DNA of 64,000 nucleotides from a virus (IMGVR_UViG_3300038701_000531:1438-65437); one strand, 5' to 3'; numbered from the stretch's first letter, positions 32,504 to 50,562 are shown. Translations and numbers: made by a program. The notes: generated from the sequence alone by a model not told the origin.

Positions 32504-35500
32504 CTACCTCTGTGCCTGTGCATTAATATTATTCATCTTAACTCTAGTATCTACAGAGCCATTGCCTGAATCATCTATAGTGATAGTATTAGATACACTA
32601 AAACCTATACCCTCTAGAGCCGATAAAAGGATATCTTTAGCTCCACCTACTATATTAGTTCCAATTGCTTGGTCTATTGTAGCATAAGGACCTGACCAAA
32701 AAAATGTTTCTGCTAGGCTAGGTTCTGTTTTTTTCTGTGAGGACTTATCACTAGACCTCTTATCAACTTCACTATCTGACCCAAAACCTAAGTCTTTACC
32801 TAGTCTTCTTTCTACTTCACCCATAATGTTCTTAGAACTTAAAGCTATAACTTCTTCTATTAGTGCTTTAAGTAACATTAATTTAAGTATTACCCTACCT
32901 AGTGGGTTTAACATTAAGAGAAAACCTGCTGATAGTTTACTTACTGTGCTTTCAGCAAATTCACCGCCTACTTGGTTAAGGAAACCAAACATTTTAAGAA
33001 GCATACCTAGAGAACTTAAAGCTCTTAATATTGCCCCTGCTAATTCCCTAACTACACCAAAGACAACCTCAAAGGCTTGCCCTACAGCTTCTAGTGTTGG
33101 TTCTAGTTCTTTTAATCTTAGTGATAAATCTTTTAGTAGTTTGGCAAAACCTCTACCAAAACCTTTCTTAAAGATTGTATCTTGTGCTTTTTGTACTTGT
33201 GTAAAGAATCTACCTTGTTGTACTCTAACAGTCTTAAGAGCTTCAGATAATGCACCACCTTGTCTAGCGGCTTTAGCAAACTCTTTAGCTACTTTTGGAA
33301 GCACATCTTTAGCTAAGAGTGTGCCTTTTTCCATCATTGCAAATAATTCTTGCTCTGATACATTTAGAGCGCTGGCAAATACTTGTATACTTCCGGGAAC
33401 TTGTTCCAATTATATTCAATAAAAGTCGCTACACCTTTACCCGCCCATCAAGGGCTGCTATATGTCTCCATATAGTTTAGACTATATCTTAATCTACAGC
33501 ACTACCTGTTTAGATTCCTACCATTTCCCTCACCAATCGCTTGTGAAGTACGAGCTAAAGCTCTAGTCGTTGATCCTGCCTCTTATCAGAGGATTGGATG
33601 CTGATTGACCTTATCTTAATAATTTTTACAGGTCGCCAGTATATCTCTATCTGGTATTGTATATTAAGCTTAACAGGTGTTTCCAGCAGTTAAATAGGTT
33701 TTCATAAGGAGTTTCCTACCTTAAGCGCCTAACATTAAGCGAGTTGTTGCTTTCATTAAGTTTTTTCTGATAAGTTCGTTACTCTTACCACGTTCTCTAA
33801 GAACTGCTACATGTCTCCATGCAGATAGGATCATATCTTCACCCTCTCTAATGAGTAGGGGCTTTCTGTTTCGATTCTACTTAGAACCTACTCCCTTTCG
33901 GGATGACCTCTGAACTACTATTTTTTTTTTTTTAGAAATATAAATCTGAAATATCTTTATATCTTATCTTGTGTCGTATACGTTTCACTTCAATCACTTT
34001 AAGGTTTTTATTGGTAGATATCTTAGCTATGTTCTGGTCTGAGATACCTTCATTTATCTTTTCACAAACCCAACAAATAGTTTTTGTAGAGAACTCTGTT
34101 CTATACTGGTGAGGTACTTGATAAAGTTTTCTTACATGGAACCAAGTATCTCCAGCTTTTAGCTTCCGTAGAACATCCATACTTATGTTATAACTGTCGG
34201 AGAGGTCTCTTACTCTATAACCTTCTGACAATTTTTTACAAAGTTCGTGTGCTGTGTTCTCATCAAAAGAAGAGTTGTATAACCCCTCTCCTCTACTGCT
34301 TTCTAAGTTCTGTCCTGCGTGTTGCTGGTTTTGTGCCAAGGAACACCACTCTAAATTATCTAAGTGGTTATTTAGCTTATTACCATCTATGTGATTAACT
34401 GTTGTCCATATTTCAGGGTTAGGGTTGGGTATCCAAGCTTTTGCCAGTAACCTGTGTACTCTAGCGCAAGCTGCTTTACCATTAATACAAGTTCTTATAT
34501 ACCAGTACTTAGGTACTCCTTGTAAAGTGTGAGTCATCTCTTTTTCAGAATCTATCCTGAATATTCTACCACATTTACTAACAGCGTAAGCTGGGTATTC
34601 CTCACAAACTTTAACCTTATAGCCTTTTATTTCAAAAATATTTGACATTTATTTCTCCTACTGAACTTGGGAGTTAAAAAAAAAATAATAGCTGCGGATT
34701 GTCTCTATTATTAACCTTATTACCATACCACGCTCATTACAGCGTGTGCTAGTACCTTATCACTAAAGCACTGCGGTAGTCAATACCTAACAAGATATCC
34801 CCGCAATTAAGAAAGTTTTTACTTAATTATTACTAAAAAAGTGAGCCAAATCAACAACTTAGCTCTTCTGACATGATCGTGGTCTTATTGAGCATTTGTT
34901 GCAATGCCCTTAAACCACTTTTAGCTTGCTCAGGTGCAACTTTAAGAGCTGTAGCAAACTCACTAAAACCTGTAAACAATTCTTTTGTTTCAGTTCTAGT
35001 CAACTTACCTTTAGCTGCAAATTGCAATTTAGAGAAAGCATCTGTAGAGGCTTTTAAGTCTAAACCTAACCTTACAACTTCACTATCAACAAAAGCTAAA
35101 TCATTAGCAGCTAACTTAGCAGAACCTGATGATGCAAGCATTGACGCTCTCATTCCCTCAAAATCCTGACCTACTCTATTAATAGATTGAACACTATTTA
35201 ATACAGCAAAAGCACCTAAATAAGATGTAGCTAATTGTCTAGCTGATTCCTTCATCCTATTCTGTGCCCTAGTTAACTCATTAATCTTTTGTTTCGTTTG
35301 TGAGGAAACTCTATTTATCTTCCTCATCTCAGCAGCTTGAGCTTTAAGAGCCATAGTAGCGTCTATAGTAGACTTACCCATTTTCTCTTGCTCTAGTCCT
35401 AACTGCCTTAATTGTTTTTGTTGCTTCTCTGTGAGATTAAATAGTAATCTCCTACCCTCAACAGTTCTATTAAAGAAATCATCACCGCCTTTAAAAGGAG

Positions 35501-45761: not shown

Positions 45762-48700
45762 TTAGTTATTCATATTATCCAACACATTCTTAGCTAGTGT
45801 TGGGTCAGTTGATTGATTTCTTGGTACAATTTTTATTACACGTTCTTTACAGAGGTAGTTGAATGCTGTTGCGCAAGCATCAGGCCAATCATCTTTCCTA
45901 TGTGCTGTTGATCTTTCTCCATCGAAAGACTCTAGCTCTTTGTAAAAAGCGTCTAGTGTAGCTTTATTAGGAAAAGATTCCTCTACTATTCTAACTAGCC
46001 CCGCTTGACAAGCTGCTGCAAAAGGTGAGAATTTAGTTAACTTAGATTTGTTAGTAGGCATTGCATCTGCCTTTACTATATAACCCTCAGATAATAATTT
46101 CTTAGCGGATTCCTGAAACTCTACAATACCAGCTTGACCTACATCTTTAGGTAGTATTATAGGGACTTCATCTCCATCAGCTTCTGCTTGGTCTTTTATT
46201 AGCGCATCTCTTTCTCCAGCTAATCTACAAAACTTACCATAGATATCTGATTTCTCATCTTTAGCTGATGGTATAAAATCTGCTATGATATAATAAATAC
46301 CATTCTCATCTTTTTCCATTCTAATAGAAGCTGTAGGGTCTACATATCTATTTTTCTCGCTGGGTATACTAGCACCTTTATCCCAAGCTCTGCATTTAGA
46401 GGTCTTACATATAGGATAAGTTACATTTTCAACCCAATCTCTACCCCAATAATTACTACCCTCTGCTCTTGCATACCAGTTACCTTCAAGTAGTCTTGAC
46501 CTCTCTACTCTAGGGAGTGAATTTAATTCTGCTAAATACTTGGGGTTTTTCTTGATTAATATTGGATTATCAAAAATAGTACCCGCAATGAAAGTAAAAG
46601 ATTTAGGCTGTACTGTAATGTATTCTTTATCTATAGGATTCCAAACCTTACAAGCGTCAGGAAAATCTGCTATGATTTCCTCTGCACTATTTCTAAATAC
46701 AGGTTTCTCGTCTATTACTATATAATACCTAATTTTACCCTGCTTCTCAGGGTCTGGTAATCCAGTTTCATCTAGATACCACTCAATCCAATTTAACACC
46801 CAACTATCAGCATCTGGATTACAAGAACCGAAAGCATAAGAATCACTTTCTGCTCCAGAACGTAGTCGAGATAGTAGATATGTGAACTGTCTTTCTGTAA
46901 AGTGGGTTAGCTCGTCAAAACCAACAAAAGAGTATTGTACTTTTATGTTCATAACTATTCGTTAGGTAGTTACCGCTAATTAAAGCTGCTATATGTTTCC
47001 ATATAGATCGGACTATATCATCATCCTTTTCAGGACGCCTTGCGCTTCGAGTATCAATAACTTATACCCTACGAGTTTCCTCTAGTCTCTGCACTCACCT
47101 AAAGTTTAATTATAGGCTAGCTCAGGATTATCTTCAGCATTACTTGTTAAGACTTCCCCTGAATTCACAAGGTTTGCAACTTATATTACTATAAGAGGGG
47201 GCTACAAATTAACCCTTGATGGTCTTCGCAGTTATCTTCATGCTGCATGTGAGCAAATGTTAAGGTTGCCCCACTTGGAAATTCATGTTGATACTGCGGT
47301 TTATTTCTAGTTTTGGTTTTAAAAGGTCGGTACATCTTTTGGCTCTCAGGCCAAAGTCCCCCAGCACCTACTAATTGAGTAGTGACCCTACGAAAGAATA
47401 TACCATTAAAATTGGGGTCATGTACATGCTGCAAAGGGTGCATCAACATTAAGTGAGAGTTATGAGTAACTATAAAATCTTTGGTAATAAACTGTTTATC
47501 GTCCCCTGTAATGGATATACAAGTTGAATAATCTCTACCTGTCAATTCTACACTAACAACCCTATTCTTAATTTTCTTAGGTTTACACCGTTCTTTCTTA
47601 CGAGTTAAATGAAATATATCCGCCCCATTGGGGTGTCTAATATATAGTATATAAGCTTTACCGTAAGGAGACGGTGTTTTCTTCTCAGTTATAGTTGCAG
47701 TACCACCTAAACTTCTAATTAAGTATTGCATATCCCTAGCTAATTTAGAGGATACCGTACAGAACTCTAAAGAGGTATCTAAGTTAGCGCACCCATCAGT
47801 ATCCATAAGACCTCGTAGTAGTTCGAGTCTATTATTGTAAGTACTATTTAAGTACTCATCTGGAATACTTTTTGTATAAGATTTATGTCCAAATAACCCC
47901 AAGTCAATAAGGTCGTCTTTTATGTTATGTATTCCATAAGCGTACTGAGACGATCTTTTATTAATTCTATAACCTAGTGACTTTAATCTATCTATAATTT
48001 CCTTATCCGCAGACGTAATAGCTACTTCTTTATTAATAGATCCATCACCTAATAAACACCCTACTAAGTAGGGATGTAAGGTATGTTCTTTACCTTGAGA
48101 ATATTCTAGGTTGGTGGGTAAATCAATTAAAGGACAACGTCTACGAGCGCCTTTAGGTTTTCCATATTCTTTATCTAGTATACTTTTTAATTTTAAAGTA
48201 TCTACAGTCTTGCGATTATCCTGCCCATCTCCTGCTATAGAAATAGTCCATAGATGTTCTCCACATACCTCTACATTTCCTCCGTCTTGGAAAGTAACTT
48301 TATAAACATCTTTCTTAGGCTGAGGATATATCGCTAAAACTTTTTCGATATTACCTTTAGACCCTATCACAGAGTTTCCTACAGAAATATTTTCTATATT
48401 TACCCAACCAGTATCAGTTAGTACTGGAGTACCGTGTTTTAATGCTTTTCCCGAACCAGCCTTGGGATTGTTATGTAGCTCGTTATACTACTCTCTGATT
48501 TACCAGAGTATCGGACTATATCTTAGCTTTACGCTCCCCCCGTTTCGAGTTCACTTGAACCCTACTTCCTCTCGGAATAGTCTCTACGCTCGGATATTAA
48601 TCCTAGCTCGGTATTAGCATATCTTTAGACTTAGCTTTCACCGAATTAGAGGGGTATATTAAGGTGGAACCACTGGATTTTCAAGCACCACCGTAGATTA

Positions 48701-48788
48701 CAAGGTCTACACCTTTATTTGTTATATTGAAAGCAAGCTCTTGTGAACCTTTTTGTCACTGTGGTTGGATAACAACTTGTTTACTCAA
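45762..48788 (-). CDS. terL: terminase large subunit: exons 48788-48684, 48460-47212, 46939-45762; contains an intein and an in-frame TGA (48758-48756)
   Basis: Splicing restores YGGA-AGSGK-(intein)-SHLM and HQG-L-QYSFVGFDE; nuclease 'RAWD..S', 'HDD.PDA'-like motif; TTG start with AAGGAGGT. Confidence 0.9.
46940..47211 (-). mobile_element. group I intron (terL intron 2, 272 nt, no ORF)
   Basis: P1 GGGU/GCCC; P10 UUGUA/UACAA; GATATAGTCC; GAAA-capped P9; terminal G. Confidence 0.9.
47459..48445 (-). mobile_element. class 3 intein (329 aa) with LAGLIDADG endonuclease in the TerL Walker A
   Basis: Ala1 (ALKHG), block B CGEHLW, block F STCIS, block G VTHN/S (WCT triad); LLGDG and LMDTDG. Confidence 0.9.
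48461..48683 (-). mobile_element. group I intron (terL intron 1, 223 nt, no ORF)
   Basis: P1 GGUGGUGCU/GGUUCCACC; P10 CCAGU/GCUGG; AAGATATAGTCC; terminal G. Confidence 0.9.
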
Positions 48789-48789
48789 C

Positions 48790-49453
48790 CTACACCTCCT
48801 TAGGGATAAAATCCCATCCCAATTGTTTATAAGATTTACCTAACCATTCTAGAGGTATTACCCCCTTTCTTGGTTTTGTTAATATATGATTATTCTTATT
48901 CCTGCATCTATTTCTTAAAGTTCTGCTATCAATATGATTAGCTTTAGCAGCTTCCCTACAAGTATCAAAATTCCCTAAAGGAGTGATCCAACTCCCTATC
49001 CAAAAAGGGCTATCTTTACCTTTAGGCTGAGATAAGTTATCAGGTCGTATACTATTAAGAAATTCTACCCTAAGACTTTTATCTTCCTCTGATAATTTTT
49101 TTATAATTATCTTTTAAAGTATTCCTCATTTTAGCAGTAGCTTCTTTACCCCTATAACCCCCCCAACCTCCTAAGGATATGTTGTAGTATTCGGGGTTAT
49201 CCACAACTGCCTGAGTAACTACTTTTTTCTCGTAGGCATAACATTCTTTAGCTGAACCCTCAAATAAAATTTCTCTTTTGAAGTTGTCCTTTCCATATTT
49301 ATCTAAGGCCACTTTAATAATAGATCCTGAACCAAAATATTTGTCATCATTTACTGTATTCTTATAAGTTCTTACCCCTATGTACTTCCTATTATTAACT
49401 AAATTAGTAGTAAGATACACAAAAGCTTTTTTACTAAAATCTGGACTAGACAA
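48790..49453 (-). pseudogene. free-standing GIY-YIG homing endonuclease, frameshifted at an A7 run (49096-49102)
   Basis: 'FVYLTTN..NNRKYIG..YFGSG'; removing one A gives a 220-aa ORF ending 'WLGKSYKQLGWDFIPKEV'. Confidence 0.8.
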
Positions 49454-49473
49454 GTTTAACCTCTATATAAAAG

Positions 49474-49809
49474 CTAATCCGCAGTCATTTTAATAACTGG
49501 GCTAAAATCATCATCCTCGTCACTATCATCATTAGAATCACTTTGACCTCTCTTGACAATACCCTGAGCTTTCTCTAAATACTTCTCAGCTTCAAAAACT
49601 AACTTAATTAAGTCTTTACTAGCTGCAACCTTTTGTGGTAATGTTAATTTGTTTTGAGGGTCTAAGACAGCAGCTATTAGATTATCTACTGCATCAGGTA
49701 AATATTGTTTACCTTTAGCCCTCACTTTCTTATGGGCTGTGGCTATATGCTTACTAGCAGGTTTATGTTCACCTGTAGGATTAGCTACCTTACCTTTTTG
49801 AAATGCCAT
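49474..49809 (-). CDS. putative terminase small subunit
   Basis: 'FQKG..ANP.G' N-terminus, helical, upstream of terL. Confidence 0.6.
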   Translation of the reverse strand: MAFQKGKVANPTGEHKPASKHIATAHKKVRAKGKQYLPDAVDNLIAAVLDPQNKLTLPQKVAASKDLIKLVFEAEKYLEKAQGIVKRGQSDSNDDSDEDDDFSPVIKMTAD

Positions 49810-49812
49810 ATA

Positions 49813-50562
49813 TTACTCCTGTGTCACACCAATCAATAATGATGCTGCATTAACTACAATCTTAGTATTAGCATTTTCACTAATACCTCTAAATTCAAAA
49901 GTAGTTCCTGCGGTATAAGGGGGTGGTGCAAAGAAAGTATCCTCTAAACTAGATTCATACAATTGGTATTCAATCAACCTGAAAGGTACTGGGTTATGAG
50001 GGGGATATACATATATACTAACATCACAATCTTTATTCTTACCTAAATAAGCTCTAACCCTATTAGCAATTAATACTTTATCTTTAGACACTGTATAAAC
50101 TGCATTATGAGATATCTCAGCTCCTTGCCCCACTTTAGCCATAATCTTAGATGCCACATTAGGAATACCTGCTGTAGCACCACCTTCCCCAGAATAAATA
50201 TAAATATCTCCTTGAGAGGCAACTCCTGATAAGTTAATAGCTTGATTAAATCTATAATAAGTACCACCTCCAACTAAAACTGGAGTAGTACCATTGGGTG
50301 TAACTGGAATAGTTATCTCTGTGAAATCGTCTGTTAGAAGTGTTAAAACGAAAGTGTTTGCTGTATCTGATGCAGAGGTAGATACTATGTATACATTCTC
50401 TGCTGTTGCTAGAGGTGTGTATAAGCCTCCGTGAGGCCATAATGTCTCCTCAGACATACCTACGTCTGGGTTAACCCCTGTTATTGTCTTAGGGACTGCG
50501 CCACCAACCCTCCCTAAAGATATATCCACTCCAGAGGAATAGATTTCATAAATACTACTCAT
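49813..50562 (-). CDS. putative virion structural protein
   Basis: 249 aa, beta-rich, 'G.NPDV....ETLW..GG.Y' motif. Confidence 0.55.
   Translation of the reverse strand: MSSIYEIYSSGVDISLGRVGGAVPKTITGVNPDVGMSEETLWPHGGLYTPLATAENVYIVSTSASDTANTFVLTLLTDDFTEITIPVTPNGTTPVLVGGGTYYRFNQAINLSGVASQGDIYIYSGEGGATAGIPNVASKIMAKVGQGAEISHNAVYTVSKDKVLIANRVRAYLGKNKDCDVSIYVYPPHNPVPFRLIEYQLYESSLEDTFFAPPPYTAGTTFEFRGISENANTKIVVNAASLLIGVTQE

Follow-up and report, generated by a model that had tools for sequence, protein, structure and literature searches.

A six-nucleotide, stop-containing gap in a phage terminase gene, linked to a Seg-like endonuclease cassette and probably passed by a short hop of tRNA-Gln

Programmed readthrough of UGA, of which the A1 protein of phage Qbeta is an example, gives an extended product at a low level. 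In the gene 60/mobA system of phage T4, the site cut by a homing endonuclease is shielded by an insert that goes untranslated, and this insert outlasts the decay of the nuclease (bioRxiv 10.1101/2022.08.31.505936). Hopping of a ribosome over a stop codon has been described for synthetic constructs in E. coli, which were engineered and of low efficiency (Weiss et al. 1987, reviewed in PMC5009743). The same review of recoding, from 2016, knew of no natural stop-hop, and raised the possibility that some supposed readthrough may in fact be hopping (PMC5009743). [quoted passage not shown] We describe here a terminase gene from an uncultured phage in which a stop codon lies in an otherwise invariant motif, and the group of related loci to which it belongs.

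The window, by which we mean the whole stretch of 64,000 nucleotides that was analysed, comes from an IMG/VR contig of 70.9 kb that is ~78% complete and has terL as its only terminase gene. All features of the window for which coordinates are given below lie on the (-) strand. The 5′ part of terL reads TTG AGT AAA CAA GTT GTT ATC CAA CCA CAG TGA CAA AAA GGT TCA CAA. The gene opens with the Shine-Dalgarno box AAGGAGGTG (48793..48801), and its first ten codons (48759..48788), which specify M S K Q V V I Q P Q from a TTG start (48788-48786), are homologous to the N-termini of uninterrupted TerL proteins. Codon 10 is CAG (48761-48759), the proposed take-off codon, and codon 11 is an in-frame TGA (48758-48756), which is followed by CAA (48755-48753), the proposed landing codon. 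The rest of exon 1, from the resume codon AAA onwards, encodes K G S Q E L A F N I T N K G V D L V I Y G G A (48684..48752). The initial annotation had pointed to a TGA at codon 11 between two Gln codons, behind a TTG with a strong Shine-Dalgarno sequence. The sequence is exactly as it described, TTG 48788 is the sole plausible start of terL, and ATG, GTG and TTG are absent in frame from the stop to the end of exon 1 (codons 12-35 inspected), as had also been stated. Because the two other frames of the window terL close within 11-14 codons, the zero frame alone reaches the Walker A motif, and an RF2-like +1 or -1 shift at CAG UGA is ruled out. We also considered a -1 frameshift at the C AAA AAG run just past the TGA, entered from a TTG in the +1 frame, and rejected it since the run is not conserved (its site reads CAAAGAGG in the relative L004 and CAAAAGGG in the relative L016) and the peptide is not TerL-like.

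The position of the stop within the protein is central to our argument. The family motif P-Q-x-G-x-Q that the initial annotation named is borne out by the TerL relatives, which begin ...(V/I)xPQxGxQExAxN...DVxIYGGAAGSGKS. Across an alignment of 67 full-length relatives, Q10, G12 and Q14 never vary and have no gaps between them, and the G, G and K of Walker A are equally invariant; the residue before the invariant Gln is P in at least 90% of relatives. None of 202 homologs has an altered PQxGxQ spacing. A search by sequence for relatives of TerL in the PDB found none. In the AlphaFold model of a canonical relative (pLDDT 94) the site lies in an ordered segment where helix 13-19 has its N-cap, shortly ahead of the Walker A strand, and the modelled domain of one relative resembles the TerL structures of D6E, P74-26, Sf6 and T4. 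In packaging ATPases the adenine is bound by N-terminal elements of such a kind (PMC8216284), and the PQxGxQ motif itself may have this role. L013, at 76% identity the nearest of the insert-free relatives, has CCA CAA AAA GGT where the window has CCA CAG TGA CAA AAA GGT. The TGACAA of the window (48753..48758) is thus a 6-nt coding gap without counterpart in L013, placed between the codons of the invariant Q10 and G12, which agrees with the insertion that had been suspected. The consequence drawn in the initial annotation also holds, in that a hop from Gln to Gln would yield the canonical PQKGSQ spacing and readthrough would leave two residues extra.

Downstream of this site the gene carries several further interruptions, which have to be removed on paper before it can be compared with its relatives. 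Exon 1 (48788-48684) closes with GGT GGT GCT at 48684 and is followed by group I intron 1 (48461..48683; Rfam RF00028, 45.4 bits, E 4.7e-10), which splits the Walker A codons (GGA/AGSGK). The intron recurs at this position in L013 and L014 but not in L004. Its 5′ part (48606-48697) has 82-86% identity to DNA of ~100 Vibrio phages, which belong to the ICP1 group or are oyster-associated, and a few Bacillus and Aeromonas phages match it too; judged by these matches, intron 1 looks like a widely travelling group I intron. Exon 2 (47210..48460) is collinear with the L004 ORF and contains an Ala1 LAGLIDADG intein (47459-48445; Pfam LAGLIDADG_3 and Hint) directly after the GK of Walker A, GSGK/ALKHG...VTHN/S. 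Related inteins (GGGK/ALRHG...) occupy the equal position in dozens of distant TerL homologs, and other TerL relatives have a Cys1 intein two residues earlier (GGAAG/C...). Group I intron 2 (46938..47209; Rfam RF00028, 99.7 bits) has junctions that were set by collinearity with L004. Exon 3 (45762..46937; Pfam Terminase_6N and Terminase_6C), which encodes the remainder of the ATPase domain and the nuclease domain, is 88% identical to L004. In L004 terL is a single intron-free ORF, with which the spliced coding sequence of the window is collinear and gap-free; the product of this spliced sequence reads YGGAAGSGK-[intein]-S. With both domains present (PF03237 and PF17289), the window TerL is a large terminase of the Terminase_6N/6C, T4-like type. 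L004 has neither of the two terL introns nor the endonuclease gene described below, but both the 6-nt gap and the intein are still there. A third group I intron (33458-33747, Rfam 88 bits) lies inside another structural gene of the phage. In another relative (P0016; L015 280-780), ~450 nt with a small ORF separate the N-terminal TerL exon from the remainder of the gene, and this interruption is probably a different intron or an endonuclease insertion at Walker A.

An error of assembly, which the initial annotation had allowed for, can be set aside. A contig from the likely source run covers 45843-49900 at ~839x with no differences from the window, a contig from a second run in a different study covers 48622-48805, again with no differences, and the insert is present in other assemblies as well, so that the chance of a sequencing or assembly artefact is negligible. 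The window phage uses the standard genetic code, since TGA terminates 13 of its 90 long ORFs, and a genome-wide reassignment of TGA (code 4 or 25) is ruled out on the same count. Selenocysteine is ruled out by the absence of a conserved hairpin 3′ of the UGA. A suppressor tRNA of the phage was rejected as well. The tRNA genes of the window are four (Arg-TCT, Met-CAT, Thr-TGT and Pro-TGG), the 70.9-kb contig has tRNAs of these specificities only, and L004, whose record (G001) is a complete genome of 90,937 bp with terminal repeats and a single terL, has no tRNA genes at all.

The gap is not a peculiarity of the window. Several terL homologs have been truncated at the insert by gene callers, and the DNA underlying them showed further inserts, which brings the collection to eight distinct cassettes at nine loci. 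The gaps that follow CAG are TGACAA in three cassettes and TGACAT, GTGTAA, GTGGTAA, TGATTAA and TGAGTGA in one each; they measure 6 nt in five cassettes and 7 nt in three, and their deletion recovers PQxGxQ every time. In the 6-nt relatives the site reads CCA CAG TGA CAA AAG GGT (L016), CCT CAG TGA CAT GCG GGT (L022) and CCA CAG GTG TAA AAA GGT (L019). All of the carriers are metagenomic sequences from uncultured phages. Scans of metagenome, viral and genome contigs with patterns for further cassettes returned only contigs that were already known, and among the cultured phages of the GenBank phage set none carries a closely similar endonuclease gene adjoining terL.

Directly upstream of terL in the window lies a gene for a Seg-like GIY-YIG homing endonuclease (48790..49453; Pfam PF19835 SegE_GIY-YIG, 38 bits), whose best named matches by tblastn are segB genes of the T4 type. 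It aligns over its full length with intact homologs of 218-224 aa (L016, L019, L026, L027 and L029) at 48-55% identity. The window copy has the GIY-YIG domain and the intergenic position of a Seg gene, and instead of one intact ORF it consists of two frames, broken at an A7 run (49102-49096). It may be a decaying copy, or a copy expressed through slippage at that run. The 3′ end of the endonuclease gene, with last codons K-E-V, makes the Shine-Dalgarno box of terL, and the wider box AAGGAGGTG-NN-GG-(G/T)TG is common to most insert-bearing terL genes and missing from the insert-free relatives. A search with the endonuclease found six homologs (L016, L019, L026, L027, L028 and L029), all directly upstream of an insert-bearing terL; five of the six were inspected directly, and all five adjoin a truncated terL. 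The endonuclease gene is intact in five loci, frameshifted in the window, and lost in L004 and L022, where the Shine-Dalgarno box alone is left of it. On the TerL tree the carriers fall into four separate, well-supported clades, each beside insert-free relatives. Since the clades are scattered and the cassette endonucleases are merely 48-57% identical among themselves, these comparisons indicate that the cassette is an old one that moves horizontally. The mobA/gene 60 type is characterized by an endonuclease that stands free next to the insert, by a patchy occurrence and by a nuclease that decays or is lost, and all three are found here.

The three 7-nt cassettes are the most informative. Their sites read CAG [TGATTAA] GCT GGT CGT CAA in L026, CAG [TGAGTGA] GCT GGT AGA CAA in L027/L028 and CAG [GTGGTAA] GAG GGC AAA CAG in L029, with the gap in brackets. 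In all three the start codon is in frame with CAG and Walker A is in the +1 frame, and the resume codon is immediately preceded by a stop triplet that shuts the downstream frame; the incoming frame, too, meets a stop at once in L026 and L027/L028. Readthrough and simple frameshifting are excluded for these cassettes because the flanks are in different frames with stops in the way. Both flanks are nevertheless translated, as can be seen from L026 and L027, whose TerL proteins are 96.6% identical with a dN/dS of 0.077. Between these two the changes are synonymous both upstream (CAG/CAA) and downstream (CGT/AGA) of the gap, each in the frame of its own side, and within the gap two of the seven nucleotides differ, the last triplet going from TAA to TGA, from stop to stop. 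With the other routes excluded from the sequence, skipping of the gap would be the only way to join the 7-nt flanks into PQAGRQ or PQEGKQ. Here the gap length is not divisible by three and leaves standard decoding no way of joining the flanks; for the window, where the gap is 6 nt and in frame, the same argument rests on homology to the 7-nt cassettes. It is through these homologous cassettes (L026, L027/L028 and L029) that the hop from Gln to Gln proposed in the initial annotation gains its support, and the 6-nt version is presumably decoded as the 7-nt version would be, by skipping.

The main alternative for the 6-nt cassettes is that the UGA is read through, in a programmed or leaky manner, by a near-cognate tRNA (probably Trp), that the resulting PQ-W-Q-KGSQ protein is functional, and that the stop serves to keep terminase low. 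With a C as the next base UGA makes a weak stop, and such is the context here. In the window, L004 and L016 the CAA after the stop would still put a Gln two residues before the invariant Gly, and the residue that precedes this Gln in the family is not strictly invariant. However, the change of frame in the three homologous 7-nt cassettes makes readthrough impossible there and leaves it open only to the 6-nt members, the window among them. Even among those, L022 would receive His at the position of the invariant Gln, the stop in L019 is TAA, and no homolog out of 202 has two extra residues at the site. The persistence of the stop speaks against readthrough as well. The TerL protein of L004 is 88% identical to that of the window, and the Shine-Dalgarno box, the TTG and CCA CAG TGA CAA are all unchanged between them; in the extein downstream of the stop the two differ with pS 0.68, dS 1.78 and dN/dS 0.039. 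This last value places TerL under strong purifying selection throughout both of the stop-carrying lineages. The much more distant terL genes of L016 and L022 keep CAG TGA CAA and CAG TGA CAT, and such persistence is more than chance would produce. If two extra residues were tolerated, eight of the nine single-base changes of TGA, each of which results in a sense codon, would give more protein, yet the stop persists across a synonymous divergence that is saturated and across cassettes whose endonucleases are ~50% identical. The fact that TGA persists in spite of these many escapes suggests that the stop itself is selected. Three points favour a hop over readthrough in the window, namely its homology to the 7-nt cassettes, the fact that the stop persists, and the His that L022 would receive, and we regard readthrough as unlikely. 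Around the TGA nine of nine codons are identical between the window and L004, against 55% elsewhere, in a 27-nt identical run that is the third longest in the gene; we did not count this as a recoding signal, as co-transfer with the cassette or constraints on initiation would fit equally well.

A different kind of explanation is that these terL genes are non-functional and belong to defective phages, or that TerL starts downstream of the stop and the first ten codons are not TerL. The first form of it draws on the fact that every carrier is a metagenomic sequence, and the second on an in-frame ATG ~10 codons past the gap in six of the eight cassettes (the M of A-M-N). In the window and L004, in contrast, that position is Phe, and an in-frame start ahead of Walker A is lacking. 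A downstream start would also do away with the invariant Q10, G12 and Q14, and it does not account for the synonymous-type changes that lie upstream of the gap and between the gap and the ATG, each in its own frame. A non-functional gene is at odds with the dN/dS of the gene body, 0.04 and 0.08, and a defective phage with L004, a complete genome with a single terL. This explanation is improbable in our view.

It has also been considered that the 6-7 nt are removed or avoided by some other route, such as excision or editing of the RNA, slippage during transcription, or a suppressor encoded in the missing 22% of the genome. The incompleteness of the window record (~78%) leaves room for the last of these, but L004 is complete and lacks any tRNA, and a suppressor tRNA cannot mend a gap of 7 nt. 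Slippage is opposed by the absence of a homopolymer run from the gaps, and we know of no RNA-processing system that removes 6-7 nt. We consider such routes very improbable.

For the window we come back to hopping as the probable reading, namely an endonuclease-linked coding gap across which peptidyl-tRNA-Gln makes a +6 hop that takes it from CAG to CAA. The cassette, as we picture it, would consist of the Seg-like GIY-YIG endonuclease gene, the box with the Shine-Dalgarno sequence and start, about ten terL codons and the gap, and as a mobile unit it would have put the TGACAA mini-gap into the PQxGxQ codons of the terminase ATPase. Ribosomes that initiate at TTG 48788 would make M-S-K-Q-V-V-I-Q-P-Q and then pause, at a point where peptidyl-tRNA-Gln sits on CAG, which it reads by wobble, and the A site holds UGA-C, a weak stop. 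In a fraction of them the tRNA would re-pair on CAA, six bases downstream, and decoding would restart at AAA to give the canonical PQKGSQ protein, and the ribosomes that do not hop would terminate. All eight cassettes fit a scheme in which tRNA-Gln leaves CAG, re-pairs on the last triplet of the gap and the next codon is read.

The take-off codon is CAG in all eight cassettes, despite the divergence of the endonucleases; insert-free relatives have CAA in eight of the eight motifs scanned and in L013, and CAG in L014, and over the whole phage CAA (386) is used more often for Gln than CAG (150). In the window the take-off and landing codons, CAG and CAA, both specify Gln and can both be read by a UUG anticodon. 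The last triplets of the gaps are CAA in three cassettes, CAU in one, UAA in three and UGA in one, and all of them pair with the UUG anticodon by Watson-Crick or G-U pairs, except for the wobble position of CAU. It counts against the hop that the landing triplet is perfectly cognate in only three of the eight cassettes and near-cognate in the others. The A site at take-off holds UGA in six cassettes (the window and five others), and the fact that L019 and L029 have the sense codon GUG there in place of a stop also counts against it, as does the low efficiency of the synthetic stop-hops (PMC5009743). The landing site would be set by the re-pairing of tRNA-Gln. At take-off the nascent chain, 10-11 residues that end in P-Q, is too short for a nascent-peptide signal of the gene 60 type, which is a further point against the hop. 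A conserved take-off or landing hairpin was sought at or after the gap and none was found, with weak z-scores. The sole shared helix joins the start-codon region with codons 8-10. This hairpin (48759-48794), which has equivalents in L004, L016, L019 and L022, pairs the spacer and the start codon with terL codons 8-10, through UUG-CAA in the window and L004 and through GUG-GCA-C in L016, L019 and L022, a difference that looks like a compensatory change. It may control the initiation of terL, or couple it to translation of the endonuclease gene.

At the level of sequence, these comparisons establish that the insert is real, conserved and linked to the cassette, that both of its flanks are under selection, and that the 7-nt gaps leave no decoding other than skipping. 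As for its purpose, the initial annotation had suggested that bypassing limits the amount of terminase. Because the insert belongs to a mobile cassette led by an endonuclease, we find immunity of the target site the more likely reason; by analogy with T4 mobA/gene 60, the insert would then exist because it destroys the site that the endonuclease cuts. More broadly, we lean slightly towards the view that the cassettes make up a natural family of hops of 6-7 nt, in which a Seg-like cassette plants a stop-containing mini-gap in the PQxGxQ codons and tRNA-Gln moves from CAG to CAA, or to a UAA or UGA with which it makes G-U pairs and which also closes the wrong frame, leaving the protein unchanged and the nuclease target destroyed.

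If this is true, these would be the first natural stop-hops, as far as the literature examined shows, and homing elements could invade essential motifs without an intron or an intein. The logic of mobA and gene 60, in which a selfish nuclease shields its own host copy through an insert that the ribosome ignores, would extend to a new nuclease class and a new essential gene. The loci provide a natural set of variants, with gaps of 6 and 7 nt, UGA and GUG as A-site codons, and CAA, CAU, UAA and UGA as landing triplets. Their read-out is clear, since the outcome is either the canonical PQxGxQ, two extra residues or no protein, and this makes the rules of short-range bypass directly testable. There is also a warning for annotation, as every one of these terL genes had been cut short by gene callers.

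The likeness to T4 gene 60/mobA is the closest one. [quoted passage not shown] The two are nevertheless distinct. The gap of gene 60 is 50 nt long and those of the terL cassettes are 6-7 nt, with neither a long nascent-peptide signal nor conserved take-off or 5′ stem-loops. The nuclease is of the GIY-YIG Seg type in the terL cassette and an HNH enzyme, MobA, in T4; the target is the Q-type motif of terL, which is not split in two, in one case and topoisomerase in the other, and the cassettes share no sequence homology. The CAG UGA CAA arrangement of the window resembles the synthetic stop-hops of Weiss et al., also in that the predicted product is two residues shorter than that of readthrough. 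Unlike those constructs, it is natural, conserved and needed by an essential gene, and its 7-nt relatives would land on stop triplets. In Hau3, likewise, the large-terminase gene is broken by short inserts that disrupt the frame and whose flanks resemble relatives without interruption, and a slow-to-decode A-site codon has been proposed there as the trigger of short-range bypass. In contrast to the terL cassettes, the trigger proposed for Hau3 is a rare sense codon, UUA, tied to the development of the host, a regulatory role has been suggested, the inserts have no link to a homing endonuclease, and the terminase family and the site are others. With readthrough of the Qbeta A1 type the window shares an in-frame UGA in a weak context within a phage gene. 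Readthrough in Qbeta adds residues to make a second, minor product, whereas the only useful product of terL lies downstream of the stop, and the homologous terL cassettes change frame, which is beyond the reach of readthrough.
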